Sequence record: NC_101835.1
Source of the DNA: a phage
DNA: 64,000 bases
Direction: 5' to 3' (one strand)
Shown here: positions 2,778-23,561 of the stretch, piece by piece
Layout of the letters: every line of letters starts with the position of its first letter
Numbering within the stretch: the stretch's first letter is position 1
The notes under the pieces: generated by a model
Database searches by the model: none
Told to the model about the DNA's origin: nothing
The model's input: the letters and a program-made list of their open reading frames with translations, nothing else
Position numbers and translations under genes: made by a program

Positions 2778-4850
2778 TTATGAGAAGTCTGGAGGGACAA
2801 CATCTTCTACATACCCTTTCAGAGCAACCTGCCCCATATGAAGCACGGTAGAATCTCTGGCTGTAACAGTGATGCTGTCAGACATTACTTGCGGGTATGC
2901 CCACACATACTGTTTTACCTCGGGGTATCTATACTCTATGGTTGCCATGTTTCCGCAGATACATCTCCATAAAAATTCTTGGTAATTCCTGGTTGGGTCG
3001 TAGCCATATACCGGAGCAAGCTCTTTACTAGGAACGAACCCTGCAAGGTATTGTATTTCAGACGGTTGCCAACCTAACTTAACGATAGGTATGTTTACAG
3101 ACTCTTTTGCCTTTTCAATACCTCCCTGCATCACCCAATCGTAGCACTCGGTGCAGAAGAAATCAAGAGCACCTGCTTCCTTTTTATATTGGTCAGCAAG
3201 GTTCAGCTTTTGCGTAAGCTCGGTTTCCATGATGGTTGGGAAAAACAGCAAAGCTGTCATCTGAGCTGATGCAGCGTGTGCCTTTATTGCCTTTGAAATA
3301 GCCGCAATACGAGCGCCAAGCTTACCACGACAAAATGCTACATACTTGTCGTAAACACCGCCAGTTTTAGGATCGTCAATAGTCCCAATATCTAATGCAT
3401 ACTCACCTGTCTCATCATAAAACGCCTGCTTTGTAGGGTAATCATAAATACAAGGTCTACGAGTATCGGTATTGTACCACCACCACGGTTCACCAACCTG
3501 CATAATCACTGGCAGGTTGTTTCTCATAGCGGCTGATGCAAAATTCTTAAATACTGCAGTAAGGAAATTCATACCCTCTTCAATGGTTGGAGACAGGAGG
3601 TAGCTACAAGGTGTATACCCTGTTTTAGCGTAGTTATCGTTCCAGTCTCTTTGGGTCCATTCCAACGGGCAGGCATCGCTGAAAAGCTCAAAACTTACAG
3701 ATTGCATAACGTCGAAGTTATGTCGTTTGGCATTGTACATAAAATCATCATGCCATTTATAAGCTGCAGCGTTTAGCGCCCCTGTTCTGTTTATAGACCA
3801 TTGGGTTCCTGACCATGTGTAGTCATAATAATGACTCATACCAACATAGTGGTTTATGGTTCCGGTATAGCCCAGACGCTTGATATTGTTCAACACCCTT
3901 AAAGGAGATACGTTCCACATATCGTCATATGCGGTGCAGATCCCGACGTCGTGCTCTTTAACCTGAATATTGTTAAGTTCCATCATTTTCCAGCCCGTGT
4001 CTGGCTGAAGCAGATCTAGGCGCAACTCACACTCTACATTTTCCGTTCTCGGGTCTGTGCTATTACTTACCCAGTCTTTAGGCATAAGCGGTATTAAAAT
4101 CCTTCTCACCTGCCGAGGATCAACACCCATCATGTTGTTGTTCTGATCCATCCCGACGCAGTCCTCGAAATCAATATGAATCTCTGCAACATTCTTATCC
4201 TCTGAGATGCTGACAGCATATTGAGCTAAAGGAACATAGATGATTGTGCCATCAACAAGGTCTACAGTCATAATCATCTTTTCAGGAGTGGAGAAGTTGC
4301 TGGCATTGGTTATTGACATTCTGAACCAAAGCTTGGTGTTTCTCATCTCATAGTGATCATCAAACCCAATACCGAAATGGTCATACTTGTCAACTGTTTC
4401 CCAAATGCACCCAGCCATACCTCCATATGTTCTTGACACTAAACGGTTAATACAACAGTTGTCATCTGCAACAATACAGGTACTTTCAGTCTGCTGAGTG
4501 GTTGTAACCCAATATCTTGGGTGAAACATTCTCTCCTCAACAGTATCCCAGGATATCCTGTCAAGATTCTCATCTGAAACTATTGTACATTTCGCCCTTT
4601 GTGTCCCAATCATCACCCCTTGAGATTTTGATGAAAACTCCATAAAGAAGCTTCTTGGTAACCTGTTGGGTAATTTGTCAACAATTTCCACGGGGATCTC
4701 AATACTGGTTGCCCCAATTGGGATAGTTACATCGCCCTCAACATGATTATAATCCCTACCAGGAACGGCAGTATCCTGAACTGTTCGGTAGTGAAACTGT
4801 GCAGCCATTGTAGAGTAATCACGGTAAGGTTTAAAAACAGCTGTTGCCAT
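2778..4850 (-). CDS. tail-associated structural protein, function unknown
   Basis: 690 aa ORF in baseplate/fiber block; start overlaps upstream stop (TAATG); AGGAGG RBS. Confidence 0.35.
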   Translation of the reverse strand: MATAVFKPYRDYSTMAAQFHYRTVQDTAVPGRDYNHVEGDVTIPIGATSIEIPVEIVDKLPNRLPRSFFMEFSSKSQGVMIGTQRAKCTIVSDENLDRISWDTVEERMFHPRYWVTTTQQTESTCIVADDNCCINRLVSRTYGGMAGCIWETVDKYDHFGIGFDDHYEMRNTKLWFRMSITNASNFSTPEKMIMTVDLVDGTIIYVPLAQYAVSISEDKNVAEIHIDFEDCVGMDQNNNMMGVDPRQVRRILIPLMPKDWVSNSTDPRTENVECELRLDLLQPDTGWKMMELNNIQVKEHDVGICTAYDDMWNVSPLRVLNNIKRLGYTGTINHYVGMSHYYDYTWSGTQWSINRTGALNAAAYKWHDDFMYNAKRHNFDVMQSVSFELFSDACPLEWTQRDWNDNYAKTGYTPCSYLLSPTIEEGMNFLTAVFKNFASAAMRNNLPVIMQVGEPWWWYNTDTRRPCIYDYPTKQAFYDETGEYALDIGTIDDPKTGGVYDKYVAFCRGKLGARIAAISKAIKAHAASAQMTALLFFPTIMETELTQKLNLADQYKKEAGALDFFCTECYDWVMQGGIEKAKESVNIPIVKLGWQPSEIQYLAGFVPSKELAPVYGYDPTRNYQEFLWRCICGNMATIEYRYPEVKQYVWAYPQVMSDSITVTARDSTVLHMGQVALKGYVEDVVPPDFS

Positions 4851-5536
4851 TAACCCTCCTGTCTAGTTGCGTTTACTGTAATACTTTCACAATAAATGGT
4901 TGTGGTGTCCCAATCAGGTCTTACGTCAGGAACATATAGCAAAGTAGCCAGCCCACCAACTCCGAATTGGTTTTCTTCCCACACTGATCCGAAGCCAAGA
5001 GCTGTAGAGTCCCCTTCAAAACCAAAAGCTTGCCCTTGCGATTCTGTAAGACGCAAATGACAAGGTAATGGTAGCATATCTAAGATCTGATCGATAGACT
5101 GCAATATGTCAAAGCAAGTTTTTCTAATATTTATGTCAAACCTGAAGTTGTCTCCTTTCCACGTATCGAAATTGTCTCTTCCGAACAATTGTCGCAAGGT
5201 GGAGATGACATCTTCGCGAGTCCCGCCCCTTGATGCTGCGGCCTGCTGAATAATTAGTGTGGCACGAAAATCAGCATCTGAAAGTCCATTCCTAAGAATA
5301 CCAAGTTGATTACCAACTTCGTCAAGGTATCTTCCGCTGGCATTGTTAAGCAATCTTCCTTCAGCCAAACCTACCAGCATCTTATCAACATCCTCCAACC
5401 TTTTAAGGTACACGGTTAAGAATGTGACTAAATTAACCTTCTCAGCCAGAAAATCTCCAGGCAGGTAGTCAAGACCTCCCTGAACAAAATCTGGCAGAGT
5501 GTGGATGTGGTTAACATCCGACTTAATCTCTGCCAT
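4850..5536 (-). CDS. putative baseplate wedge protein
   Basis: 228 aa, immediately downstream of the baseplate J-like gene; assignment by position only. Confidence 0.3.
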   Translation of the reverse strand: MAEIKSDVNHIHTLPDFVQGGLDYLPGDFLAEKVNLVTFLTVYLKRLEDVDKMLVGLAEGRLLNNASGRYLDEVGNQLGILRNGLSDADFRATLIIQQAAASRGGTREDVISTLRQLFGRDNFDTWKGDNFRFDINIRKTCFDILQSIDQILDMLPLPCHLRLTESQGQAFGFEGDSTALGFGSVWEENQFGVGGLATLLYVPDVRPDWDTTTIYCESITVNATRQEG

Positions 5537-5547
5537 ATCTCGCCGCC

Positions 5548-7038
5548 TTAAATAGTTTGTTGGAAAGTTATATTACTTTCGTCGAGGTCAAACACCTCGG
5601 TCATGTTCGCAACAATATCGTTTGTAGTGTAAGCTTCATCAGAAGCCCCTACTGGTTTAACTTGAATTACCAGTCTATTAAATCTTCCTATTGACACAGC
5701 AGCAGATGCAGCACCTACCAATTGGATATTGTACAACGTATCTGCAACATCCAGTCCGTTAACAACCTGTAAAAGAGCCTCTACAATGGCATCTTTTTCG
5801 GTTGTGGAAAGCGCAGCACCGGAGTAGGTAATTCTCACATCTAGGCGGTAGGTATTCGCCTTGGAGTAATAAATTCTTTCAGTTTGACCGTCAGATGTAG
5901 TGACATCGTAGAAAATATTACCATAAGTCCTGTTCGTACAGGCTATAGTTTGGTAAAGTGCTTGGCAAATGTCCTCCGTTGCACCACCAAACACAACCAC
6001 TTGGAACTTGTAAGGAGGTATACCTTTAGCATCAGTTTTATCAGTGTTGTTGGAGAACACTCTCACTTTCTCAACACCTTTCACCTCGCTTACAGCGCTA
6101 AGGATTGCAGGACGGGTAGCCTTCGATGTTAACTGTTTTGTGCTGGAAGCTCTTAAGCGATACTCGGAATCTTTCTCAACATCCCTGCCCTCGTTGAATC
6201 TTTCTCGGTTGGTAAGCTTGATAAATCCGCTGGGAGTAGGTGACATTGTTGTCACGGTCTCTGCCTCTCTTGACAGCTCACCAGCCTCGTTAGCTATAAC
6301 ATCTAGGGTGATAGTTCTTTCCCCTACAATCGGGGATACTCTGAAATCTACCCTACTATTAAGTCCAACTTGATCAAGATTCGAATTGTACCCTATCCAC
6401 AACGTTCCTGTCAACATATCGATCTGAATCAAATCGTCGTTCAACAGGGTTGTATTATCGACAATGAACTGCTTAATCTCTCCGTAAAAGCTTGGCAGAT
6501 CAGAAGAGTCCAGAGACTTATCTGTTAAAACCAGACTTTTTGTTTTGATACTTCCATCTGTCTGGTTGGTGATTTGAAAGTTGTATTTACCAATCCTTAG
6601 GTCTGGAGCATTTATTCTGTGGGCAATAAGATTCCCTGCCACCTGCACATCATTGCTAAGAACAAAGTTGCCACTATCCAGCGTATAAGTTTTGGAATCA
6701 TAAATCATATTGTACGGCACAGTTGTGTTGATTGTCAACTGGCAGGTACCTGATGATTTAGAACGGCCTCTTCGGTAAATACCCTGTCTTCCAAGAAGCT
6801 CATCTAGGTAAATACCTTCTGCCCCATACAGCGTCTGTGATGCGTATACAGATGCTGCCATAAGAATAAGTTGATACTCTCGCTCGTTGAAGATAGTGGT
6901 CAGCTTATCTGCAACGGAGTTACTCTGTACGTTGAAGTTTTCGCCAAAAGCACGGATCAGGCTTTGCTTAGTTTCAACGATTAGGTCATTTAGGGTTGGT
7001 ATAACGAAACCAGCCTCTGTCAATCCATACTTAGCCAC
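5548..7038 (-). CDS. baseplate J-like protein
   Basis: 496 aa; N-terminus GLTEAGFVIPTLNDLIVETKQSLIRAFGE resembles baseplate J/gp6-like wedge proteins; GTG start with GGAGGAG RBS. Confidence 0.45.
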   Translation of the reverse strand: MAKYGLTEAGFVIPTLNDLIVETKQSLIRAFGENFNVQSNSVADKLTTIFNEREYQLILMAASVYASQTLYGAEGIYLDELLGRQGIYRRGRSKSSGTCQLTINTTVPYNMIYDSKTYTLDSGNFVLSNDVQVAGNLIAHRINAPDLRIGKYNFQITNQTDGSIKTKSLVLTDKSLDSSDLPSFYGEIKQFIVDNTTLLNDDLIQIDMLTGTLWIGYNSNLDQVGLNSRVDFRVSPIVGERTITLDVIANEAGELSREAETVTTMSPTPSGFIKLTNRERFNEGRDVEKDSEYRLRASSTKQLTSKATRPAILSAVSEVKGVEKVRVFSNNTDKTDAKGIPPYKFQVVVFGGATEDICQALYQTIACTNRTYGNIFYDVTTSDGQTERIYYSKANTYRLDVRITYSGAALSTTEKDAIVEALLQVVNGLDVADTLYNIQLVGAASAAVSIGRFNRLVIQVKPVGASDEAYTTNDIVANMTEVFDLDESNITFQQTI

Positions 7039-7143: not shown

Positions 7144-10100
7144 TTAGTCGTGAGACTCGTTCCAAGGTCCTTGGAAGCTTGAGTTAGAACGGCTTACCAC
7201 AACAGTAGGACAGGATATTGCGACCCCTGTTACAGAAGACGTTGACCATGGTGTGTAGATTTCAACAACAATATCTATGGTTTGTTCACCAAGACCTGTT
7301 ATCCCTACCGCACACATGCCGTTGTTGTCGTTTCCGTACTTCTTACCTGCAAGGATTTGATGTCCGGCTATCCAAACGTTGAGCTGGGAGCTGGCAAGAG
7401 TACCATTCAGTTTAAAGAAGAATGTTACGTTCTTACCCTGACCTGAAACGTTATCTACGTATCTCCACCTCCAACGGCAAACCCTTTGCTGGGAGTTATA
7501 TACTGGAGCACAATCCCCGTAAGTCCTGTGTGCAACAATTGCACCTTCGAACTGGTTAGCGCGGATAACAGAAGCTTCTACACGACCACGGAAGGTACCT
7601 CCGGTTGCATCTATGGTGCCTCTAAAGCTGCCATTATTGGCATAAACATCTCCACGGAAGGTACCACTAGTGGCGTTAACTGCCCCTGTGAAGTTACCAG
7701 AACTGGCGTTGATGTTGCCTTTCACCCACACATCCATAAATTGGGCGTGCCCGTTCTTATTAATATACCAACCGTATTTATGGTACCCGTTGCCATCGTA
7801 GTTGTTTGACGAAATTTCTTGTGCGATCTTGGCAGAGGAGATCGTGCCATTCTCTATAAAAGCGTCTTTCAAGAACGCTTGGTTGTTCTTGATTGCGAAA
7901 GCAAGGGTTGCTGTTCCATTTCCTGGGTTGTATACCGCAAAATTGTTTGCACTAACCATGAAGTAGGATTGAACTTGGCCCCCAGACCCTTCCATCCCCA
8001 GCTGGATACCTGCAACATATTTATTCCCTGCGGAGTCTACCTGTATTTTTGTGCCCCATTGAGCATTTACTTTACCCTCTAAGTCGGTTACAGCCTTAGA
8101 TGTTGTAGCTACTGCAGCCCTGATCTCAGACACATCCCCAACATCATCAATGATCTCCTGCTTAGCAACAGCAAGTTCTTGACGAATAGCTGACGCTGTG
8201 CCGTTGATAAGGTCCACAGTGGCTTTATTGGTATCGGAAATTGTAGCATCCAGCGCTGTTTTTGTGGAGGTCAGTTTTCCATCCAAAGCATCAATCGCTT
8301 GCTTGTTGGTAGAAATCTCCCCACGTGCAGAAGTTATCTGCTCTGACAGTGCAGATGTTTTCTGATTCAACAAGTCAGTGGTGGCCTTGTTGGTATTGGC
8401 AATCAAGGTGTTGAGGTCAGTTTTTGCGGTAGTTATCTTGCCGTCAAGGGCGGTATAGTTTTTAGATACCGTCGCGTTTGTCTGACTAATCTTTTGATCC
8501 AGAGTTTCAGATGTCCTGTTCAAAAGATCCACAGTGGCCTGGTTAGTGCTCAAGATGCTTGCGTCAAGTTCTGTTCTCTGAGTATTGATCTTACCATCCA
8601 GAGTTTTATCTCCGGCTAAATACCCGCTCTCAACTCCCTCTATCTGCTCTACCAGCTCACCTTTGGCGGCAACCAATTTCTCATCTAAAGCCTCTGTCTT
8701 TTTGTTCAGAAGATCAGTAGTTGCTTTATTGGTTGTCTCAATCAGGGATGCCAATCTTCCACTTTCAGTGTTCAGATCGTTGGTGAACTTGTTCTGTGCA
8801 GCAACAAGTTTCCTATCCAGCGCTGTGATATTGCCATTGACATCCTCAAACTTCTGAGTTGTCTCTGTAACTACCGCACCTATTCTGTCTCCAAGTTGCT
8901 GGAATGCCTCATCTACCCTACCATCCATGTACCTGTTAAGTTCTGTGACACGATTTTCAACCTCTTCAATAGAGGAATCCAAAGTGCTCATCAACTCTTT
9001 ATAAGTTTCTGTCTTTTTGAATTCAGCATCTATCTGAGGCATCAAATCCTCAATAGAGGTGTAGCAGCGTGCAGCGCATTCTACAAACTGAGAACTACCA
9101 AAAGCGTTTGTGGTTCGAATATACCAATAATAAACCTTATCGTTCTGCAGACCTTCAGATGTCCAAGTTGAACCAACACCCATACGGGTGGCGTTTGAAG
9201 TAACTGTTGCATCACTGGTGTCGGGCAACCTTGTCATACCGGATGTCCAAAAGTCATACTGGGTGCTAACACTTGCTAAATCCCTACTATGCGGAATCAA
9301 GGTGATAGCAAAGTATCCTTGCTTAACCTCTACAGAAACCGGAGCTTCAGGTGCCTGAATGTTAAACTCACAATACGCTTCTGGAGATACACCACCTTTA
9401 TAAGATGTTGCAACAACAGTGGCTGTGTAGGAACCTTTAGTCAGACCTTCAACACGGACAAACTGCTCAACTGTCTGTGCTGTCCAAACAATCTCTCCGT
9501 TCTTTCTTACCTGCACAATATTTTGAGCGTAAGTCCCAACGTTGTCCCAGGCCAAAACACCGTGAGTTACTTCCCCAGCTTGGAGAACTGAGTATCTGAA
9601 GTTTTGCGGCTGAGCTACACCGGACGGGGATATCGGAATATCTACATCGCCGGAATCCGGAAGTTGCCCTGTGGCATCATTCCACTCTTTAGCATCTTGA
9701 CGAAGTTTTACCTTGACACCGCCCTTTTTGGTGAACTCCCATTCAAGAACCCTCATTTCTTGGCCCACTATACCAATACTTGGGAGGTCCATTGTAACAT
9801 AACGGCCAGGCTTAAATTTAAAACCTCGCATATTGCAGGTGACTTCAATAATCCTGCCAGCTCTAGCACGTCTTAAGAAGATTGCAGAAACACGCTGAGC
9901 TTGATAAGGGCTGGTAACAAAGCGATAGTCTATATCGATTATCTTTCTTTCTCCATCCTTCTCTATCCACTCTGGGACAAACACTGATGGAAAATCTGTT
10001 TCAGAATACCCTTTGGTCGGGCTAGTGAATCTGCCAGTTATTGTGTTGGATCTTTTGTCAAATGAGGCTTCCGGATAGATCTTAACCTCACCACAGACAC

Positions 10101-10983
10101 AGTCCTCACTAAGTGTCATTGTTGCTGGGCCATAGTATGCACCAACCAGCAAACCATACTTACCAGCAACATAACTAAGATCTGCACCGCAAGCTTTCAG
10201 CATTTCTGCCATAATACTTGCTGGGGCCTCATCCATGTCAAACTCACCGTTAATGGTGTAACGGCGCTCACTGGTTCCGTCTGCGTTTTTTACCGCCTCG
10301 TCGCATATGTTGGCAGCCTCCTTGAAGGACTCCCAGTTGATGGTTTCGTCAGGACATTTAAGGTACGTTCTTAAATAGTCTAGGATCACCAAGGCAGCGT
10401 TATTGGTGTACACCTCTTTACTGATACGAGGATCATAGCATTTTTTACCAATCTTGACGAGTGTAACGTTTGGCAACCCAAAAGGAAACTTGTTAGGGTC
10501 AAACCTGAAGCTGGCACGTAGCCAACTGATCCCTCTACCTATCATGTCAGGTGACCATGATGGGCAGTGTGTACCCATGAAAGGATCAGATGTTTTTCTG
10601 TCGTTATGTAGCTCCCACGATACCAGATCTCCATACGAGGAAATAGGATTACCGTCGATAAGTATATCTTCTATACCTTCCAGAGGGTGATTGGCAAGAA
10701 CAATAGCACAATGGAGGGTTCTGTCGCTATCCTGCTCCAAAAACGCAAGCAATCCAGATGTGCGTGTCTTTCCATACACTACAGAGCAAGGTGCAGCAGA
10801 AGATCTGAGAAGCTTTTGTCTATCTTGCTGACTTCTGTAAGATTTGTTGCCCTCAAAAATCTTATCCAAAGTTCTGGTGGTCACAGTGTTCAGGCTGTCA
10901 GCCAGAGCTGCCTTGGATGCGTTCCAGTCATAACTTGAAGATCTTGCAGAAGCAACGATGTTATCAATCATTGCAATTGGCAT
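7144..10983 (-). CDS. large tail fiber / host-specificity-like protein with coiled-coil repeats
   Basis: 1279 aa; central region of repeated TNKATTDLLNKKTEALDEKL-like segments; Gly-rich C-terminal region; ATG with GGAGG RBS, TAATG overlap with upstream gene. Confidence 0.5.
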   Translation of the reverse strand: MPIAMIDNIVASARSSSYDWNASKAALADSLNTVTTRTLDKIFEGNKSYRSQQDRQKLLRSSAAPCSVVYGKTRTSGLLAFLEQDSDRTLHCAIVLANHPLEGIEDILIDGNPISSYGDLVSWELHNDRKTSDPFMGTHCPSWSPDMIGRGISWLRASFRFDPNKFPFGLPNVTLVKIGKKCYDPRISKEVYTNNAALVILDYLRTYLKCPDETINWESFKEAANICDEAVKNADGTSERRYTINGEFDMDEAPASIMAEMLKACGADLSYVAGKYGLLVGAYYGPATMTLSEDCVCGEVKIYPEASFDKRSNTITGRFTSPTKGYSETDFPSVFVPEWIEKDGERKIIDIDYRFVTSPYQAQRVSAIFLRRARAGRIIEVTCNMRGFKFKPGRYVTMDLPSIGIVGQEMRVLEWEFTKKGGVKVKLRQDAKEWNDATGQLPDSGDVDIPISPSGVAQPQNFRYSVLQAGEVTHGVLAWDNVGTYAQNIVQVRKNGEIVWTAQTVEQFVRVEGLTKGSYTATVVATSYKGGVSPEAYCEFNIQAPEAPVSVEVKQGYFAITLIPHSRDLASVSTQYDFWTSGMTRLPDTSDATVTSNATRMGVGSTWTSEGLQNDKVYYWYIRTTNAFGSSQFVECAARCYTSIEDLMPQIDAEFKKTETYKELMSTLDSSIEEVENRVTELNRYMDGRVDEAFQQLGDRIGAVVTETTQKFEDVNGNITALDRKLVAAQNKFTNDLNTESGRLASLIETTNKATTDLLNKKTEALDEKLVAAKGELVEQIEGVESGYLAGDKTLDGKINTQRTELDASILSTNQATVDLLNRTSETLDQKISQTNATVSKNYTALDGKITTAKTDLNTLIANTNKATTDLLNQKTSALSEQITSARGEISTNKQAIDALDGKLTSTKTALDATISDTNKATVDLINGTASAIRQELAVAKQEIIDDVGDVSEIRAAVATTSKAVTDLEGKVNAQWGTKIQVDSAGNKYVAGIQLGMEGSGGQVQSYFMVSANNFAVYNPGNGTATLAFAIKNNQAFLKDAFIENGTISSAKIAQEISSNNYDGNGYHKYGWYINKNGHAQFMDVWVKGNINASSGNFTGAVNATSGTFRGDVYANNGSFRGTIDATGGTFRGRVEASVIRANQFEGAIVAHRTYGDCAPVYNSQQRVCRWRWRYVDNVSGQGKNVTFFFKLNGTLASSQLNVWIAGHQILAGKKYGNDNNGMCAVGITGLGEQTIDIVVEIYTPWSTSSVTGVAISCPTVVVSRSNSSFQGPWNESHD

Positions 10984-11408
10984 TAATACCTCCAGACATC
11001 AACAACGATAGAATCTTTCATGTCGAACATAAAGACCCCTTTATCACCTTTCGCCCAAATCTGGTTGTTCCAGAACACACCAGCGGTGAGCCCGTTCAGA
11101 CCTTCGAAAATAACAATATCGCCACGCTGAACCTGTTTAGGAGTATCCAGTCGAGTCATAAAGAGATCAAAAATAGTAGGCAGGTGTGTAGTTTTGAAAC
11201 GAAGCATGCACCATCTTTTGCTTTCCAACTCTGTTTTATACGTTCCTTCGAAGTTGGAAAGAAAATCTGTTCCGTATTGGGCATCAACACACTTAGCCGC
11301 AAAGGTGCAACAATCGTGGAATCCCCATTCAAAAGGTATGGTGGCCTCTTCGTCAAACACTTTCCACAATCTTTCTTGCCAATCCACTAAACGAGGGTGT
11401 GTGCTCAT
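10983..11408 (-). CDS. hypothetical tail protein
   Basis: Track ORF trimmed to internal ATG (MSTHPRLVDW...) with GGGAGG RBS; contains EWGFHDCC Cys/His motif of unknown function. Confidence 0.35.
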   Translation of the reverse strand: MSTHPRLVDWQERLWKVFDEEATIPFEWGFHDCCTFAAKCVDAQYGTDFLSNFEGTYKTELESKRWCMLRFKTTHLPTIFDLFMTRLDTPKQVQRGDIVIFEGLNGLTAGVFWNNQIWAKGDKGVFMFDMKDSIVVDVWRY

Positions 11409-11959
11409 TAAACCTCCCAAATGATCGGGCGGCTCGCCACCTGATCCACATATTTAAAAAATCTGTCATTATCGTTTCTTGAGCTGTGGCTTTCCTCCGT
11501 GTACCGATAAGGAAAACCTCTTAACCAACTGTTGAAGATGGAAGAGATGGATATTGACAAAGCACTATTCTCACCTGTCTGAATAGCCATATCTGTTATA
11601 AGGCCGTCAAACAAGCCATTAGTTGTGACAGGTAGACCATTCTCCATAGCGGTAATGTACAACGTGGCACGACAACCAGAATACTCCGTCTTCAGCAGAT
11701 CACCCACATACTTAGGATCAAACCCGTTCAATGTTGCTACCACAGATCCGAAGTTGGTGGCATCTTTCTCAGACACAGCAGTTAATGTTGCTGATCCCCC
11801 TATCCCTATAAAATGTTGCCCCTCAATTACTACAACACCAGTGCCTGAGCACACCCTGACAGTTCCTGTCGGTAGCTCCAGCTTTGCAGCAATTAAGATC
11901 TCAACACCATCAAGCTCCAGCTTTTCAAGAAATAAATTATCTAATGGCGCTCTGATCAT
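11408..11959 (-). CDS. hypothetical tail protein
   Basis: Track ORF trimmed to ATG (MIRAPLDNLF...) with GAGGA RBS; TAATG coupling to downstream gene. Confidence 0.35.
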   Translation of the reverse strand: MIRAPLDNLFLEKLELDGVEILIAAKLELPTGTVRVCSGTGVVVIEGQHFIGIGGSATLTAVSEKDATNFGSVVATLNGFDPKYVGDLLKTEYSGCRATLYITAMENGLPVTTNGLFDGLITDMAIQTGENSALSISISSIFNSWLRGFPYRYTEESHSSRNDNDRFFKYVDQVASRPIIWEV

Positions 11960-11960
11960 C

Positions 11961-12551
11961 TTAGAAATCCTCAAAGAAGTTGATAACTATATTATCACCT
12001 TTTTGCATAGCATCGACTTTTTGCTTAATTTTATAAATATCTCTGATATGAAACCTACCCTTCGGGGATTGAGTTATTATCTTCATAGTGTCCCCTGCGG
12101 CAATAGGTTTTCTAAGTCTTGGAGATATGCTTATAACAGCAGACCCAACACCATCGCTACGCACTGGAGCTGTTACCACTTTCAATTCATCATTGACAGA
12201 TATTTTATCCCCAGCTCTGGCTATGTCTCTGTTTGGCTCCCACCCAACCGTCTTCAAAAAATCGTCGTTACCAGTAGGCCCAAGGGCGATTGGCTCATTA
12301 GCTGTAACTGAGTGACCGTAAGTTTTAATAAGAAAGATGTTTCCATCTTTATACACCTGATCAACAAAGCTCTTAAGCTCTAGCAACTGTGACTCGCTGA
12401 TATTGGAAACCGTCAAAGTGCCTTTCCAGTTAGGTGTGGCATAGGTCACTTTTTGCGTTTTACCTGTAAACGGACTTTTAAACGTAACAATATCTGCCAG
12501 CAGCTCCAATCTAATATCTGGAAGGTATCTAGGCCTTTCCCATAAAAACAT
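11961..12551 (-). CDS. hypothetical tail protein
   Basis: 196 aa; ATG with GGAGG RBS; within tail fiber block. Confidence 0.35.
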   Translation of the reverse strand: MFLWERPRYLPDIRLELLADIVTFKSPFTGKTQKVTYATPNWKGTLTVSNISESQLLELKSFVDQVYKDGNIFLIKTYGHSVTANEPIALGPTGNDDFLKTVGWEPNRDIARAGDKISVNDELKVVTAPVRSDGVGSAVISISPRLRKPIAAGDTMKIITQSPKGRFHIRDIYKIKQKVDAMQKGDNIVINFFEDF

Positions 12552-12614
12552 TGTGCCTCCAGGTTAAACAATCATGATAGTTATTTTACCAGATTTTGAG
12601 TTAATACGCAATAC

Positions 12615-12643
12615 AAACAAAAAGCCCCCGCCGAAGCGAGGGC
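12615..12643 (-). terminator. rho-independent terminator
   Basis: GC hairpin GCCCTCG-CTTCGG-CGGGGGC followed on the minus strand by TTTTTG, downstream of the 1268-aa gene. Confidence 0.5.
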
Positions 12644-12650
12644 AAAACAG

Positions 12651-15600
12651 TTACTTCAGTTTCTCTTGCAACCCAGTAACAACCTCTGTCAATTTTTTAA
12701 CCTGCTCCTCAAGGGCGGTTATTTTATCGTCCTGTTCTCTGCAAACCTGGACAAGCAAGCCTGTTACGGCTGCGTAATCCACGCTGTAGAATCTTTCCTC
12801 TGTTATCAAAGGAGTTCCATCTTGATTAGGGTTTGGGATTTCCTTTCTTTGCACGAAAGAGCTAACTGCTTCCGGCAGTGCTTCAAGCACTTCTTGTGCT
12901 ATAACACCTGCATAAGGCATACCGTTCTCTTTAAGAGTGTAAGTATAACCCTTCATCTTCCGGATAGCTTCTAACGCATCAGGAATAACAGATATGTTGT
13001 CTTTCAGGTCTCTGTCAGAACTCTGATTGACAGATGTGCAATTCACAGCACCGTTTACAGAAAGATATCTTGATTTATCCGGCAAGGTACCGCAATGCCA
13101 TACCCAATTTGCTTGAGACTCGTCACGAACCTTAAACTCTAACACGTTTGGGCGATCCCCTGCGCTGCCGTTGCCCCAATAATGGAGTACAGCATCATCC
13201 TTAGGTAAGTTATCGGCGTTGGAGGAAAGACCATTAGCACCGACATGAATTTCCAGCTGAGTGCTGTTTTCGCCGAAAGTGTAATTAGGTCTTAACTGAA
13301 TGCCCTTACCAGCATCGTGTCTCCATTCTTCCCAAGTAAAGACATCGCCAACGTAGTTACCAGCACGAGTATATCTGTCGCCAAAATAGGTGATGTATTC
13401 CTGCACACAACCTTGCGGTCTGTTAGCTGTGTTTTTGTAAACAAGCAGTGTACCAGCGTACGGAGCAGGGTAGTGGCGATCTATTACAAGTGCGTCAGCG
13501 TTTGAACCCTGGTGATAGAAACCTTCACGGCTACCATCGTAGTCATTAAGGTCTTCTGTCCCCAGACCTTGACCACGGTGCTGAATAACTTTGTTCCACG
13601 CCCTGTGGTTTCCCTGCTCTATGGAACGAGTGTACAACTGGTCTAAACGACCTGCCATCTGGAAAGCGTAGTTTCCAGAAAATGCCACAGACAGTCCGCC
13701 AACAACCATTGAACCTTCAGGTCCGTTGACGTTGCCAGCCAGTATTTTGGATGGGTTGTTAGGCCCAAACTGGTTGTTCCAGTCTGCACCCGTATGACAT
13801 ACAAAACCACCTGGTGCCGAGAAAGTACCATCTTTGTTGAAATTGTAGAATCTGTGAGCAGAACCTACAACATCACGAACAATAACTTGACCAGCCTCTG
13901 GAGTAGATCTGAACTCTGCCTGACCTTTGAGACCAGCACCATTACCGCATTTAGAGGTAAACGTACCGTTAGTAAGATCCTCTGTCCCATCTGATGCACA
14001 CTGGAATCCTGCATTAGAGAATAACGCCTTTCTAGGACTGCCGTAACACAAATAGTCAAGACCGTCTGCCCATAGCTCGACTTTTGGCATATTCATTTTG
14101 CTCATCACAGCATAGCGTTCAGCAGTGCCTATATAGTGCCACTGTGTGCCGCCGCCAGTGTAGAACCCTGAAGTACCTTTGAAGTCAACAATAGGTCTGG
14201 TATTGGTGTTGTTATCTCCTAGAATAGCAAGATTCAAATCTGCTGACTGAAGAGGTGCAACGAACTTAACCCCATCCTGATTGTCTGTTACAGAGCCAAC
14301 CTGGTAATCTTGCTCTCTGGTAAACACTTCGATAACATTTCTACTTGCGTATATGCTGACAGGGAAAGCACGAGCCTCTACATAGAAAGCAACATACTCT
14401 TGTTTACCCCTTGTTGGAGCAACCATCCCAAGAAGTGCTTTTTCATTCTGGTAGAAATTTACTACCCCGTAGAAAGAGTCTCCTCTGTCTGTCCAACCAC
14501 CAGTCCTATAGTGACACTGTAAGGTAGCACAGTTCATAGGGTCATTTCCAGATGACGATCTGGTAACTATGGTAATATCAGTACCAGTTGCTGGAGCATA
14601 GTACGGATCTGTTCTAACGATGATCGGGTAGTATTTCCCATCTTCCATCCCTGCGGTTCTTGGCAGTGTTAAGAAGTCTTTCACACCTGCTGCTATAGGA
14701 ACTTTGAACAGATTCTGAGCATCTGCTAAAGTTGTAGCCCCAGTACCACCTGCGGCTTGAGGTAAAGGTTCCCACTTGGCCTTCCGGTTGTTATAAACAC
14801 CCCATTCCAGAGTGCCGTTACCGGATTCGTCCATCCCACCATCCCAGACAACCATCTTGGCGGCTTTCTTGGACCCCCAGAAGCCTCTTTCTGCCCCTGA
14901 ACTACGGATCCATTCTCCAAGTCCCCAGTTTGTCAGCTGACCAGTAAGATCCCCAACCTGCATATATTTAGGACAGTCTAATACGCCGTCTTCGCGGAAA
15001 CCTAAATATCTGTGAGTTTCAGATCCTTTTGCACCTTTGTGCAGGTGGATTGTCAACCAAGCCTTATTGTCGTTTCTTACCTCAGAATAGATCCTATACC
15101 CATGCTCAAGGACACCGTCAGCGCTGTATTTGTCCCCGTTAACAATACCCGAGGCTGACTTAACATCAGCAGAACTTTGAGACAGGTAAATGTGCCCGAA
15201 GGTAGGGGTATTTCTAGGACCAAGACCGATGTGCGCTCTAAAGGTATCATCGTTACGAGGTCTGACCATCGGCTGCCATGCAGTCCACTGGTTTGTGTTG
15301 GCCTGATAGGTTCTCAAATACCAAACATCTACGTTAGAGAATGGGTAGTATTCCTGACGACAACCTGTACCGCCGTTAGCATTGTTCTGCCAAACAATCA
15401 AGTGACCAGCACCAGAACCTGCAGGGTAACCATTTTCCTCAGTTGCATAAGCAGTCATCGGCTGGTAGTATACACCATCCTGATTACCAGTCAAGTTATT
15501 GATATTGAAATTTGGCTCAAGGGCTGCACGTTGCTTATAGAAAGCCCCGATATTGATACGGACTCCAGCGGCATCTCTGGCCCCTGTACCTCCTTGCTCT

Positions 15601-16457
15601 ATAGCAAGAGGTTGCCACGAGGCTGTTTGTTGGTTCCACATACCCCAACGGCCTGTTGCATCAAGCTGCAAGTACCCTGCCGTGTTTAAATCATCTCCAG
15701 CACGGATAACTGTTCTTGTTGGGTTGTTTGCCTCCAGGCGTTTAAATTCATCACGAAGTGCTATTCTTTTTGTTGTTGCTACACCGTTAGCTACTGCGAT
15801 GGTATACATGGCTCCGGATGTAGCGCCACGGAAAATACCATCAATAGTTGTAGTATCACGACGAGATACCACACCGTTCAGAAATTTTTCACCAGCTGCT
15901 ACAGAAGGGTAGTTAGTGGTTCTTCCCTCTTCAATAACTGCAGGACCCACAAAGTTATCAAGGTGAATAACATCACCTACAGTGTGCACCGTACCAAAAT
16001 CTACACGCTGTGCAAGTGCTTTAGCATCGTTAGCTGTCTGAACAGTAACATCCATTACATCCTGGACAGACTGCCCTTCGGCTGTCATGATCATAGATGC
16101 GCCAATGGTAGATTCCAGCTCCTCCCTTAGGGACGGGTCAGTATATACCATCCATGCAGCGTCAGTAATCCCACCATCGGAGTACGGTGAAGATAGTGCA
16201 GGAACAGTGTGTGGAAATTCGCCTTTCCAACGCAGGTAGAGGTCTTCCTCTTCGAAGTAGGCAAAATCCATTGGGCCGTTTAACTTACCACCTTCCTTAA
16301 AGGAGATTACATGAGAAACAGTCCCATCCACATGGACAACATCGCCAATTTTTACACGACGGGTCAGGTCTGGTTGTTGAACAACCAGGTAATCATCCTC
16401 TGTCACTGCGGTAGTGGCAGGAAGAGATTCAATTCTGACAACTTTAATATCAGCCAT
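12651..16457 (-). CDS. tail fiber/tailspike with C-terminal intramolecular chaperone (peptidase S74-like) domain
   Basis: 1268 aa; C-terminus SDRDLKDNISVIPDALEAIRKMKGYTYTLKENGMPYAGVIAQEVLEALPEAV matches the self-cleaving chaperone domain of endosialidase/L-shaped fibers; N-terminal about 80 aa shared with 19092-19760. Confidence 0.65.
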   Translation of the reverse strand: MADIKVVRIESLPATTAVTEDDYLVVQQPDLTRRVKIGDVVHVDGTVSHVISFKEGGKLNGPMDFAYFEEEDLYLRWKGEFPHTVPALSSPYSDGGITDAAWMVYTDPSLREELESTIGASMIMTAEGQSVQDVMDVTVQTANDAKALAQRVDFGTVHTVGDVIHLDNFVGPAVIEEGRTTNYPSVAAGEKFLNGVVSRRDTTTIDGIFRGATSGAMYTIAVANGVATTKRIALRDEFKRLEANNPTRTVIRAGDDLNTAGYLQLDATGRWGMWNQQTASWQPLAIEQGGTGARDAAGVRINIGAFYKQRAALEPNFNINNLTGNQDGVYYQPMTAYATEENGYPAGSGAGHLIVWQNNANGGTGCRQEYYPFSNVDVWYLRTYQANTNQWTAWQPMVRPRNDDTFRAHIGLGPRNTPTFGHIYLSQSSADVKSASGIVNGDKYSADGVLEHGYRIYSEVRNDNKAWLTIHLHKGAKGSETHRYLGFREDGVLDCPKYMQVGDLTGQLTNWGLGEWIRSSGAERGFWGSKKAAKMVVWDGGMDESGNGTLEWGVYNNRKAKWEPLPQAAGGTGATTLADAQNLFKVPIAAGVKDFLTLPRTAGMEDGKYYPIIVRTDPYYAPATGTDITIVTRSSSGNDPMNCATLQCHYRTGGWTDRGDSFYGVVNFYQNEKALLGMVAPTRGKQEYVAFYVEARAFPVSIYASRNVIEVFTREQDYQVGSVTDNQDGVKFVAPLQSADLNLAILGDNNTNTRPIVDFKGTSGFYTGGGTQWHYIGTAERYAVMSKMNMPKVELWADGLDYLCYGSPRKALFSNAGFQCASDGTEDLTNGTFTSKCGNGAGLKGQAEFRSTPEAGQVIVRDVVGSAHRFYNFNKDGTFSAPGGFVCHTGADWNNQFGPNNPSKILAGNVNGPEGSMVVGGLSVAFSGNYAFQMAGRLDQLYTRSIEQGNHRAWNKVIQHRGQGLGTEDLNDYDGSREGFYHQGSNADALVIDRHYPAPYAGTLLVYKNTANRPQGCVQEYITYFGDRYTRAGNYVGDVFTWEEWRHDAGKGIQLRPNYTFGENSTQLEIHVGANGLSSNADNLPKDDAVLHYWGNGSAGDRPNVLEFKVRDESQANWVWHCGTLPDKSRYLSVNGAVNCTSVNQSSDRDLKDNISVIPDALEAIRKMKGYTYTLKENGMPYAGVIAQEVLEALPEAVSSFVQRKEIPNPNQDGTPLITEERFYSVDYAAVTGLLVQVCREQDDKITALEEQVKKLTEVVTGLQEKLK

Positions 16458-16492
16458 TCTTTCTCCTGAAAGGGGGCAAACAGCCCCCTATG

Positions 16493-19090
16493 TTAAAGGT
16501 ACAATCCACGGTATTGAGCATAAAGGCCCAGACCGCGAAGGATTTCGCCAGAGTGATAGCCCACCGGATCAGAAACTGCCCAGCAGCCGTTTAAAACATT
16601 ATCCCCATTGATGAAGTGGTGCTTTTGCAGTAGCTTCACGCAGGCTTCTACAACAATATCTATTTGAGGTATTGTCTCTGAATACCCGCACAGACCTAGC
16701 CAGCAGCAACCTGCAAGCCATTCACCTACCACCCACATCCTGTCTCCTCTGTCCTGATAAGAATATCCCCCAGAGGTGTTAAAGTCTGTAGGTAGATTTC
16801 CTGAATGAGATGACTGGAATCTGTTGAGGAACCATGCCCATTTCTGGCAGAACAGGAATAGTCTTTCATCAACAGGTTCTTTATGTTTCTTGAGCTCATA
16901 TATTGTGCGGCACGCAGCAACAAAAGATCTTGACTGGAGCTTAGAGTTATCTACCATCTCCCACCAACCAGTCAGCCCTTCATTACCTCTTTGCCATACA
17001 TAACGTGAGGCAACTGGACCCTCTGTCTTAAATGTATTATTATACCAGACTTGGGCGTCATACAGAAAGCCTATTGTATTTGACAATCTATGGCGATCTA
17101 TGTTTTCTGCACCCATGCAGTAGACTGCTGGGTATTGCATGCCGGGGTAGGGCCAATTTGGCCTTTCCTCTAAGAGATAGTTTTCCTTATCTATCACCTT
17201 TCCGGCAGGGAACACACCTGGTGTGTGCCTGTATGCACCTTGCTTGTAGTTTCTGACATAGCAATCGCCAACCTTAGCGGTTGATTCTGTCTTGCTTGCC
17301 ATCCACACGCTAAACCAGATTAGATAAGCATCCCTATCTGCAATATAGAATTGCGGCAGCGTGTTGACGCAATACAGATCAAACAAGCCATTACCTATCT
17401 GCCTGTCGCTTAGGCTGAAATCTACAGAGGTGAGCCCCTTAGGATTAGCAAAGAAAGGTTTAATCTCTTCTTCGGTGTGATGAGGTTGTGTCGGATCTAG
17501 TTTGAAATCTCCTAGAGTAAGAGTTTCTGTTATCCATTGTCCATTAGTGGCATATAGATCAGCATACCATAACCACCTGTCTTTGTCAAGAAATTTGACC
17601 CTTACCATCTCATCATCTGATCGATAAGTTACTGAGTTTAAAGAAATCTCTCTTCCAAAATTGAAAGTTACTTTGCCTCTTGCTATATTACAACGGGTGA
17701 AGTTGTCAGAGTGGTTGTAAATGTCAGTATCGTACTGCATACTAACACTGGCACCACCGCTCACGGCAATGTTTTCCTCTTTAGGTAAGAGGTACGGATT
17801 ACCGTCTTTACCAACTACCTCTACGAAATCAGTAACCTTGGCAACTATTTCTGTTACCTCTGCCCCTCCAAAAGGAACCCCTATCCTGTACTGTTTTTTG
17901 TTATTGTTGCCATCATTAAGGATGAAATGTGGCTGGAACAGAACCCCTTCTCCTCCGAAATTCATAACAATTTCAGCATCTCTGCCTATTTTGTATGTAG
18001 TCCCTTTTTGAATTATTTCGCAAGGCTGGCGTGCGTTCATTCTAAAATTGATATACCCGTCACTGTCCCTGCTCATGACAGGAACTGTTCCTGCAACAAG
18101 GCAAGTACCATCTGTAAACGGTGCCTTAATCAACGTGGTCTTCCTAAACAGTTTGTCGTAGGCGTTTATATCACTGAAATTAAGCAATTTGTTGTAAGAC
18201 TGTTCAAACGCGGTGTAATACTTTTCCTCACCTGTCAAGGTGTAGAGTTGATAACAAGCGTCACACCACATTTCTTCCCCGTCCAACTCTGGGGCCTGAT
18301 TATCTGCAACCACGTTTATAGGATTTACAATTACAGGGGATCCTGCAGGTATCACCGATCCGCCCTGCTCTTGAGGTAATCTTACACAATAGGTCACCTT
18401 GTGGCTGCCTGTAACACCCTTATCTTGTAATTGGATTGTGCCGAACTCTACAGACGTATGACCACTGTCGGCTATGCTACCGTTAGCCCAATAGCGGTTA
18501 CCATCCCATGCTATGTACCACTCAACCCACCAACTTAATCCGGATGTTGTCCAATCTGGGTTAGCATCTGTGCCACCGTAAACATCAGAGTCTACAGTGT
18601 TTCTTCCTAACACACCGTTATACGCTTGGAATGCCTTGTCAAGGTATTCCCCCCATGTCGGAGATCCAGCTGGGATTTTTCCTCTACCGTTGGTAAAAGA
18701 CACCACCACATCTTTAAACCCACCATGTGATGGAACCCCATCTGTGGATAGAGGGTAGTGGGACAATCTTTGCATTTTACTTTCTACTGCATATGCACCC
18801 AGAAGATGGCTATTGTAAGCTTCCCAAGCATCTTTTGCCCTATCCAGATAGAAATCGCTTTTCGATGCCCTGTATGCTTCAATGTATCCCAGAATCAACA
18901 CAGCTTGGGACTCATGCATTGCCCAATCATTATTTATCTTATTACCTGCCCACCCTGCAGCTATAAGACCATCAGGGTTTACTAGCTTATTTTGTGTAGA
19001 GGTGTTGGTAATACCTGTGTTGTTATCGAGGCACTTCCTGTGCCCCTCAATCATCTGAAATACGTTATCAATGTTATGTTGAATACGCAT
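16493..19090 (-). CDS. tailspike-like protein, possible enzymatic receptor-binding protein
   Basis: 865 aa; lacks the shared N-terminal anchor; starts 2 nt after the stop of the 222-aa anchor-containing ORF; enzymatic role not established. Confidence 0.4.
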   Translation of the reverse strand: MRIQHNIDNVFQMIEGHRKCLDNNTGITNTSTQNKLVNPDGLIAAGWAGNKINNDWAMHESQAVLILGYIEAYRASKSDFYLDRAKDAWEAYNSHLLGAYAVESKMQRLSHYPLSTDGVPSHGGFKDVVVSFTNGRGKIPAGSPTWGEYLDKAFQAYNGVLGRNTVDSDVYGGTDANPDWTTSGLSWWVEWYIAWDGNRYWANGSIADSGHTSVEFGTIQLQDKGVTGSHKVTYCVRLPQEQGGSVIPAGSPVIVNPINVVADNQAPELDGEEMWCDACYQLYTLTGEEKYYTAFEQSYNKLLNFSDINAYDKLFRKTTLIKAPFTDGTCLVAGTVPVMSRDSDGYINFRMNARQPCEIIQKGTTYKIGRDAEIVMNFGGEGVLFQPHFILNDGNNNKKQYRIGVPFGGAEVTEIVAKVTDFVEVVGKDGNPYLLPKEENIAVSGGASVSMQYDTDIYNHSDNFTRCNIARGKVTFNFGREISLNSVTYRSDDEMVRVKFLDKDRWLWYADLYATNGQWITETLTLGDFKLDPTQPHHTEEEIKPFFANPKGLTSVDFSLSDRQIGNGLFDLYCVNTLPQFYIADRDAYLIWFSVWMASKTESTAKVGDCYVRNYKQGAYRHTPGVFPAGKVIDKENYLLEERPNWPYPGMQYPAVYCMGAENIDRHRLSNTIGFLYDAQVWYNNTFKTEGPVASRYVWQRGNEGLTGWWEMVDNSKLQSRSFVAACRTIYELKKHKEPVDERLFLFCQKWAWFLNRFQSSHSGNLPTDFNTSGGYSYQDRGDRMWVVGEWLAGCCWLGLCGYSETIPQIDIVVEACVKLLQKHHFINGDNVLNGCWAVSDPVGYHSGEILRGLGLYAQYRGLYL

Positions 19091-19091
19091 C

Positions 19092-19760
19092 TTAGATAGC
19101 TCCTGCGATAATCAGTGCCCCGTACCAAGTTAACCCGTTGTCGTAGGTTTCCAACTTGAAAATATCTGTTGCACCAGCTGTAAATGTTAGGATAGGATCT
19201 CTTCCGTAGGACCATTTAACATTACCAGGCCAATAGACTTTGTTGCCGCCAGAGGTCTGAGTAATGCATACGGTTATAGTTCTCGCCACCCCTTCAAGAC
19301 CTTCTGTTTGATTTTCAAAAGAGATTGTGGTATTTGAAGTTAGTCGAACCTTAAAGGTATCCGCAACTTCAAGATCCATATCAAGCTGACCACCGATAGA
19401 TCCGTAATCAACTATTCTGCCAGAAGAAGTTGCAGCAAGCTCACCAAAAACAGACCAGGCATTTGCAGACACGCCCCCAGCACCCTCTACGGTGGAGTCT
19501 GGGAGGATTATTTTAGGATAATCCCCGTTCCACGTGTAGTAGCGCTTAGTCTCTGGGTCATAAGCAAAGTCCTTCTTGCTCTTAAGATAACCACCCTCTG
19601 TGAAATAGACTATCTTAGTAATACTAAGATCGTTGACAACATCGTCAATCTTAGCCTTTCTTGTCCCATCAGTCTGGTTGACAACCAAGAAGTCATCACT
19701 CAGGACTGTTTCTGCATCTTCAAGATCTGGAATTGGTATTGTAGGATAAGCTACAGCCAT
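19092..19760 (-). CDS. tail fiber/spike adaptor with conserved N-terminal anchor domain
   Basis: 222 aa; N-terminus (DDFLVVNQTDGTRKAKIDDVV...FTEGGYL...FAY) parallels N-terminus of 12651-16457 (DDYLVVQQPDLTRRVKIGDVV...FKEGGKL...FAY); AAGGAG RBS. Confidence 0.45.
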   Translation of the reverse strand: MAVAYPTIPIPDLEDAETVLSDDFLVVNQTDGTRKAKIDDVVNDLSITKIVYFTEGGYLKSKKDFAYDPETKRYYTWNGDYPKIILPDSTVEGAGGVSANAWSVFGELAATSSGRIVDYGSIGGQLDMDLEVADTFKVRLTSNTTISFENQTEGLEGVARTITVCITQTSGGNKVYWPGNVKWSYGRDPILTFTAGATDIFKLETYDNGLTWYGALIIAGAI

Positions 19761-23520: not shown

Positions 23521-23548
23521 ACCGATAAAATAAAGGGGGCCGGAGCCC
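23521..23548 (-). terminator. rho-independent terminator
   Basis: GGGGGCTCCGGCCCCC hairpin followed on the minus strand by TTTATTTTAT, immediately after the tape measure stop. Confidence 0.55.
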
Positions 23549-23561
23549 CCTGCACAGTTTA

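Follow-up and report, generated by a model that had tools for sequence, protein, structure and literature searches.

The window analyzed here, the full 64,000-nt stretch of the phage sequence record NC_101835.1 on whose scale all coordinates are given, is by its sequence part of a Vequintavirus, an rV5-like myophage of Escherichia coli. Three open reading frames (ORFs) between positions 12651 and 19760, all on the minus strand and inside the tail and baseplate module, were confirmed and are referred to as gp43, gp42, and gp41, rV5 gene names that we assigned from size, order, and the rV5 paper (PMC3606486). We think it fairly probable that gp43 is an adaptor that holds gp42, an enzyme lacking an anchor, on the tail and that the gp43-gp42 pair and gp41 represent two appendages with a common anchor. 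Comparative genomics of the gene pair supports the adaptor idea without proving it. Below, the C-terminal part of gp43 is called the C-domain, proteins that end in it directly upstream of a gp42-like gene are called carriers, and loci from the homologue searches are labeled L with a number.

The initial annotation had singled out an 865-aa protein without an anchor immediately after the 222-aa gene, and this description holds: gp42 matched neither the anchor hidden Markov models (HMMs) nor any Pfam family, and the two ORFs adjoin. The same arrangement recurs widely. Scanning IMG/VR for the C-domain returned 55 loci, and in ~37 of them, including nearly all of those with stronger C-domain matches, a gp42 homologue (phmmer E values from 1e-50 to 0) starts −59 to +1 nt from the carrier stop. 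A scan for the gp42 family returned 78 loci, 73 of which had sufficient upstream sequence to judge; of these 73, 66 have an ORF ending in the C-domain directly upstream of the gp42 homologue, at a distance of −4 to +55 nt to the start of the gp42-like match. The other 7, which look P2-like, encode Tail_P2_I (E = 5e-52) fused to the gp42-like enzyme without a carrier, with a Baseplate_J gene before the fusion and tail fiber and chaperone genes after it. The fusion at L118 (3458-6751; also seen at L126 to L128 and L133 to L135) is a 1097-aa protein with Tail_P2_I at residues 6 to 142 and a full gp42-like enzyme. Given the 66 carrier loci and the 7 fusion loci, the enzyme therefore occurs either covalently on a baseplate protein or with a C-domain carrier.

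While the C-domain is retained, the N-terminal parts of carriers are unrelated between lineages. They comprise the anchor peptide alone (153 to 157 aa; phi92 type and L002), the anchor peptide plus Tail_spike_N (rV5 type), the peptide plus a fiber segment (244 aa; Erwinia phage type), coiled coils (207 to 305 aa, including Salmonella phage BP63 gene 28), a collagen-like segment (205 aa), short helical segments (173 to 175 aa), and a repeat fiber (563 aa). None of the gp42 homologues has a carrier-type N-terminal module. The gene directly before each of three distant gp42 homologues (27 to 56% identity) encodes a small protein (153, 244, and 222 aa). The last ~80 residues of such small upstream proteins share 42 to 44% identity with the gp43 C terminus (E = 1e-18 and 7e-20), and the N-terminal parts of two of the distant ones are unlike gp43. 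The 222-aa protein had been described as little more than the anchor, a view that we abandon here, since half of it is a separate and widespread C-domain that is conserved beside gp42 homologues.

The N-terminal part of gp43 was said at the outset to be homologous to that of gp41 before the two diverge, and formal comparison agrees. In one pairwise BLASTP comparison, residues 8 to 105 of gp43 aligned with residues 7 to 105 of gp41 at 38% identity (E = 4e-18); the similarity ends at about residue 110, and the remainder of both proteins is unrelated. Both contain Tail_spike_N (PF18668), which scored 41.0 bits in gp43 (residues 51 to 105, E = 2.1e-10) and 40.6 bits in gp41 (residues 46 to 103) against a gathering score of 25 bits. 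The common region is bipartite, with an N-terminal peptide of ~47 residues preceding the Tail_spike_N beta domain at residues ~46 to 110. Sequence matches of the gp43 Tail_spike_N included the solved tail-spike N-terminal regions 9occ_G, 8x8m, 5w6f, and 4qnl, and both gp43 and gp41 matched the solved N termini of CBA120 TSP1, TSP3, and TSP4, G7C gp63.1, and 9occ_G. Sharing of one anchor had been proposed for "multiple" proteins; the sharing is borne out, and the number is two, since gp43 and gp41 were the sole matches to an HMM of the shared N terminus among window ORFs of at least 80 aa. The same HMM had no match in the neighboring fiber genes of a close relative. In phage phi92, gp140 and gp143 have the peptide half only, and gp151 has the beta domain only.

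Pairing of anchors within a genome extends beyond rV5-like phages. An HMM of the anchor peptide found exactly two proteins per genome, the carrier and one large fiber, in 6 of 6 genomes. Both proteins were in the HMM training set for the window (gp43 and gp41) and for phi92 (gp140 and gp143, an endosialidase). Only the carrier was in the training set for L002 (carrier of 153 aa; fiber of 1493 aa with an S74 domain, E = 2e-6) and L003 (244 aa and 502 aa, E = 3e-4), and neither protein was for L004 (222 aa and 1274 aa) and PaulScherrer (157 aa and 624 aa, E = 4e-17). With other N-terminal parts, residues 1 to 149 of the L034 carrier are 58% identical to the N terminus of a 673-aa protein encoded immediately upstream, and at L010 and L017 the carrier N terminus matches that of a small protein encoded right after the enzyme gene. 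Eight other loci showed no anchor partner within ~6 kb of flanking sequence. The simplest reading of these comparisons is that the N-terminal part of the carrier would specify where on the virion it sits. This address seems to have been copied from a resident fiber, with the C-domain as the constant partner of the enzyme.

The AlphaFold2 (AF2) model of gp42, built from a 7-sequence alignment (mean predicted local distance difference test [pLDDT], 70.6; predicted template modeling score [pTM], 0.57), has twelve long helices arranged as an (alpha/alpha)6 barrel that is interrupted by beta-rich insertions at residues ~100 to 260 and 330 to 615. The modeled barrel therefore suggests, with moderate confidence, a fold of the glycan-active enzyme type and not a trimeric beta-helix spike. 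An adaptor plus enzymatic-spike pair had been predicted; of this pair, the adaptor is favored by comparative genomics, and the spike should be given up in its classical form if the gp42 model is right. A GH76 match was obtained for 1 of 16 gp42 homologues (E = 0.005), and a profile search against the PDB was weak (E = 0.002 for the whole sequence and above 2 for single helix hairpins). Residues E60, Q62, D270, D342, D502, D609, and E849 are invariant in the homologue alignment and are catalytic candidates only. All 16 aligned homologues begin with the same conserved enzyme N terminus, in which G16 and T25 are invariant.

The gp42 family is broadly distributed. Word-indexed homologue searches, including those with a profile query, yielded only 6 gp42 relatives and 4 gp43 relatives; a gp42-family enzyme was found in 524 phage isolate records, with genomes of 52 to 348 kb and hosts that include Escherichia, Salmonella, Vibrio, Erwinia, Cronobacter, and Aeromonas, among others. 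Within the genus, gp42 is at least 99% identical in 100 Vequintavirus records, and because it is nearly invariant there, it probably trims or binds a conserved surface polysaccharide.

The gp41 fiber, by comparison with that of phage EduardKellenberger, is 77 to 86% identical over residues 401 to 900 and 97 to 100% identical at its two ends. The BASEL paper reported that only the largest fiber genes vary between isolates and that the assignment of genes to fibers is unclear; the near-invariance of gp42 and the variable center of gp41 fit the first of these observations. At the C terminus of gp41, Peptidase_S74 (PF13884) covers residues 1147 to 1198 of 1268 (E = 1.6e-13; 51.1 bits against a cutoff of 22 bits), and PDB entry 6f45, a long tail fiber distal subunit, matches residues 1135 to 1260. 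The domain begins with the motif S1147-D-R-D-L-K1152, whose spacing fits the Ser-Lys cleavage pair of the S74 chaperone family. In endoNF and the T5 fiber, S-D-x-x-x-K is the catalytic Ser-Lys motif at the cleavage site. The self-cleaving chaperone domain that had been expected at the end of this protein was thus found, and cleavage itself is predicted from the motif. In the divergent relative L004, the anchor-sharing fiber (8390-12745) has a Collar domain in place of Peptidase_S74, and the next ORF, of 148 aa, shows a faint match to Caudo_TAP_N; the gp42 homologue of this relative is 56% identical. There, a separate assembly protein may have replaced the self-cleaving chaperone.

If gp43 is an adaptor, the parts of the system could be assembled as follows. 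Both gp43 and gp41 would plug into the rV5-like contractile-tail baseplate by the same module of peptide plus Tail_spike_N. One appendage would be the gp41 long fiber, its central part varying between isolates, in which the S74 chaperone would fold the trimer and then cleave itself off at Ser1147. The other would consist of gp43 and gp42, with gp43 supplying the baseplate anchor and its C-terminal ~100 residues holding gp42, which would be translated directly after gp43 and has no anchor of its own. We infer the binding of gp42 to the C-domain from sequence comparison, and likewise the enzymatic activity and substrate of gp42 and the baseplate site bound by the anchor, for which the wedge proteins rV5 gp36 (5548-7038) and gp35 (4850-5536) are candidates. 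In rV5, gp41, gp42, and gp43 were all detected by total-virion proteomics (Kropinski et al. 2013, PMC3606486), in keeping with the structural role that the initial annotation had given to these proteins.

Several observations weigh against an adaptor role for gp43. Distant members of the C-domain family are the tips of long fibers (785 to 852 aa) that are followed by small chaperone-like genes with no gp42 homologue, and certain large proteins bear the C-domain as 3 to 5 matched stretches, a repetition more readily expected of a general binding or tip module than of a platform dedicated to docking. Coexpression alone can also account for conserved adjacency. The gp42 model is of moderate confidence (pTM, 0.57) and offers only candidate catalytic residues, and the predicted model of gp140 by itself did not fit the density of phi92 fiber II (PMC13450770). 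Alternatively, gp43 might be a small fiber itself, with the C-domain as its receptor-binding knob, gp42 held in some other way, and adjacency due to coexpression only. The C-domain family is very large (4022 cluster representatives at E values of ≤1e-3) and often forms the extreme C terminus of fibers, and the 2026 phi92 study counts gp140 among the fiber-like predicted architectures (PMC13450770). However, a small fiber leaves unexplained how at least ten baseplate types come to carry an enzyme without an anchor, why the C-domain is the sole constant part of the upstream protein, and why loss of the carrier coincides precisely with fusion of the enzyme to baseplate protein I, and we consider it unlikely. 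On sequence evidence, the C-domain may be a general binding module that the gp43-type subgroup uses for docking.

The nature of the C-domain received little help from known families or structures. Its profile had no sequence match in the PDB, its members have no common Pfam family, and T4_gp9_10_N was matched in 1 of 33 distant C-domain carriers. The AF2 model of gp43, made from a single sequence, had a pLDDT of 35, too low for a fold search. At L045 to L059 (for example, L045 5863-6762, L056 2607-6726, and L057 5425-8756), a distant C-domain ends fibers of 125 to 852 aa; the small ORFs behind them (~147 to 166 aa) share a motif of the type "...PFNITWP..." at the C terminus and have the look of assembly chaperones. 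At L057, two consecutive fiber proteins end in the C-domain. The label "sialidase domain protein" given in BASEL to a gp43 orthologue (L001 20448-21116) found no support in Pfam, where no sialidase family matched and Tail_spike_N is the only hit; the label probably reflects likeness to the N-terminal regions of tailspikes or endosialidases.

The polarity of the complex might also be reversed, with gp42 as a baseplate-proximal scaffold arm onto which the N-terminal peptides of gp43 and gp41 dock. Such an arm would be in line with the P2-like loci, where the enzyme is fused to the wedge protein I and a tail fiber gene follows, and with phi92, in which fiber I is L-shaped with the endosialidase only in its distal part and fiber II joins the fiber I base (PMC13450770). 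However, the carriers of most lineages have no anchor peptide and are still paired with the enzyme, the paired anchors at L034, L010, and L017 differ in sequence while the enzyme family is unchanged, and the partner that co-occurs with gp42 is the C-domain and not the anchor. We therefore regard reversed polarity as distinctly improbable. Still less do we expect gp43 to be a nonstructural assembly chaperone for gp42, as the tight translational coupling of a small gene to a large tail gene might suggest, since rV5 gp43 was found in purified virions (PMC3606486), gp43 shares a domain of the tail-spike particle-binding type with the structural fiber gp41, and the known fiber chaperones of the window, such as the Caudo_TAP protein at 1126-1710, are encoded downstream of the protein they serve.

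Returning to gp43 as an adaptor, we put forward tentatively, as a possibility that we would not yet bet on, that the C-domain is a portable docking module that mounts an anchor-less (alpha/alpha)6 enzyme on nearly any baseplate, by means of a local anchor that is always copied from another fiber of the same phage. If this is true, the enzyme would sit beside the fiber whose anchor was copied, and gp140-gp141 would be phi92 fiber II, joining the base of fiber I (gp143).

The closest known systems are rV5, whose gp43, gp42, and gp41 are direct orthologues with the same sizes and order, and phi92. The rV5 paper recognized a P22-tailspike-like N terminus in gp43 and an endosialidase-chaperone-like C terminus in gp41, and it contains no link between gp43 and gp42, no anchor homology between gp43 and gp41, and no gp43 C-domain (PMC3606486). 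For phi92, the cryo-electron microscopy study of Chen et al. 2026 left fiber II without a gene assignment, and gp141 was not considered for it because only fiber-shaped predictions were screened (PMC13450770). The likeness of phi92 to the window lies in gp140 (157 aa, peptide plus C-domain), which is followed by gp141 (958 aa, a gp42 homologue at ~35% identity), and in gp143, a large fiber with a self-cleaving chaperone that bears the anchor peptide of gp140. The gp140-gp141 pair was recovered at L063 4239-7588. Phage phi92 differs in that gp140 lacks Tail_spike_N, the large fiber is an endosialidase, gp142 (N4 gp65-like) lies between gp141 and gp143, and the siphophage-type block of rV5 (gp40 to gp37) is missing.

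Adaptor-mediated or branched receptor-binding complexes are known from K1-5/K1E, CBA120, G7C, and KP32-type phages. K1-5, K1E, and SP6 use a gp37 adaptor with two spikes (in part as summarized by Chen et al. 2026). As proposed for gp43, a small virion-bound protein there carries an enzyme that itself lacks a particle-binding domain; unlike the window phage, these are podoviruses, and the protein carried is a trimeric beta-helix or endosialidase spike and not an (alpha/alpha)6 barrel. The searches made here revealed no sequence relation of gp43 to a K1-5-type adaptor. CBA120 (TSP1 to TSP4) and G7C (gp66 and gp63.1) resemble the window phage in mounting several receptor-binding proteins together, and gp41 and gp43 carry Tail_spike_N, which Pfam defined on TSP1 and Gp66, and match 4oj5, 5w6f, 5w6h, 8x8m, and 4qnl. 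Branching in CBA120 and G7C uses T4 gp10-like domains. No Pfam match to Gp10_C or T4_gp9_10_N was found in gp43, gp42, or gp41 at E values of ≤0.01, nor did the other window proteins scanned match the Gp10 or gp9/10 Pfam families; the branch point proposed here is the unannotated C-domain, unlike the gp10-type domain of those phages. With P2, the likeness is to protein I (Tail_P2_I), of which the gp42-like enzyme forms a C-terminal extension at the 7 P2-like loci, and this fusion locates the gp42 enzyme family to the periphery of the baseplate. The window encodes the enzyme and the equivalent of protein I apart, the latter as a 228-aa protein (4850-5536).

A multivalent "Swiss army knife" tail has already been described for rV5- and phi92-like phages, so the tail with several receptor-binding fibers that the initial annotation envisaged is established and not new. 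The gp43-gp42 pairing was not found in the searchable literature, the scope of which did not extend to Schwarzer et al. 2012 on gp140/gp141. Likewise, the literature searched did not yield the C-domain family, the spread of the cassette with swapped anchors, the fusion to protein I, or the paired-anchor rule. A two-gene adaptor-enzyme unit reused by many unrelated phages thus appears not to have been described before. Phages like rV5 and phi92 are among the most commonly isolated coliphages of broad host range and are candidates for therapy, and the adaptor reading offers them a testable assignment in which carrier and enzyme make up one appendage beside the variable fiber. The large, unannotated C-domain family could serve to find anchor-less tail enzymes in other phages, and exchange of the N-terminal part of the carrier would be an engineering rule for moving the enzyme onto another phage. 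Should the adaptor reading be wrong, what remains is an ordinary locus that has already been described.

Features of the region are listed in Table 1. Nucleotide identity across 12651-19760 is 97 to 99.9% to ~100 Vequintavirus genomes; 115 phage records span 80% or more of the region, 2 of them at ≥99% identity and 93 at 95 to 99%, and its gene order is that of EduardKellenberger. Read from the sequence, the gp42 ATG occupies 19088-19090 and the gp43 stop codon occupies 19092-19094. The terminator scan made no call for the hairpin in the gp42/gp41 spacer, where the T tract is too short. The hairpin after gp41, a strong terminator-like site, ends a gene block that starts past another terminator-like site (23534-23551), downstream of the tape-measure gene.

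Table 1. Genes, domains, and control elements in and around the gp43-gp42-gp41 region of the window
Feature	Position	Strand	Evidence or remark
gp43 orthologue, 222 aa	19092..19760	-	ORF; PHROG 7760 full length, E = 8e-120
gp43 anchor peptide, residues 1-47	19620..19760	-	Peptide HMM
gp43 Tail_spike_N, residues 51-105	19446..19610	-	Pfam PF18668
gp43 C-domain, residues ~120-222, all-beta	19095..19403	-	Proposed gp42 docking surface
gp42 ribosome-binding site AGGAG	19100..19104	-	Lies in the final gp43 codons, 9 nt ahead of the gp42 ATG
gp42 orthologue, 865 aa	16493..19090	-	Anchor-less; modeled (alpha/alpha)6 barrel, putative glycan-active enzyme fold with beta-sandwich insertions
GC-rich hairpin GGGGGC-TGTTT-GCCCCC	16472..16488	-	Within the 35-nt gp42/gp41 spacer; read from sequence
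gp41 ribosome-binding site AGGAG	16463-16467	-	After the gp42/gp41 spacer hairpin
gp41 orthologue, 1268 aa	12651..16457	-	Long fiber; PHROG 6578 full length; Pfam Tail_spike_N and Peptidase_S74
gp41 shared anchor (peptide plus Tail_spike_N), residues 1-103	16149..16457	-	BLASTP, Pfam, peptide HMM E = 7e-23
gp41 intramolecular chaperone region, Ser1147 to C terminus	12654..13019	-	Pfam PF13884, motif
Intrinsic-terminator-like hairpin after gp41	12624..12643	-	Scan: 8 pairs, 7 G-C, then TTTTTGTTTG
gp37, 1279 aa	7144-10983	-	rV5 name by size and order
gp34, 690 aa	2778-4850	-	rV5 name by size and order

Among the other tail genes of the window, the 690-aa protein matched TIM-barrel_NCTSP (E = 4e-80) and NCTSP_N (E = 8e-13), both above the Pfam cutoffs. 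Homology to the N4 gp65 non-contractile tail sheath protein spans its full length, and it has in addition a Calx-beta domain at the N terminus (E = 5e-6). Its rV5 orthologue is gp34, and its phi92 homologue is gp142, a proposed binder of the N4 glycan receptor. By these matches, it is a separate receptor-binding protein outside the gp43-gp42 pair. The "deacetylase" proposed to bind the N4 glycan receptor was considered for gp42 and rejected, since that protein corresponds to this N4 gp65-like gene.

The records nearest to the window (99.9% identity) are titled "Campylobacter phage D1" and "D#" and are unannotated, with Campylobacter jejuni given as the host. This host label looks doubtful, as every annotated relative is a phage of E. 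coli and the G+C content of the window is ~44%. Between 7144 and 12551 on the minus strand, a siphophage-type tail-tip block lies within the baseplate cluster of this contractile-tailed phage. It encodes gp40 (PHROG "distal tail protein," E = 2e-50), gp39 ("tail protein"), gp38 (DUF6950), and gp37, a homologue of lambda J (Phage_Tail_Tip, E = 1e-38; Ig_J_second, E = 1e-30). Neither the phi92-like locus L060 nor the divergent L004 has this block, and one possibility is that it forms a lateral appendage built from a tip complex.

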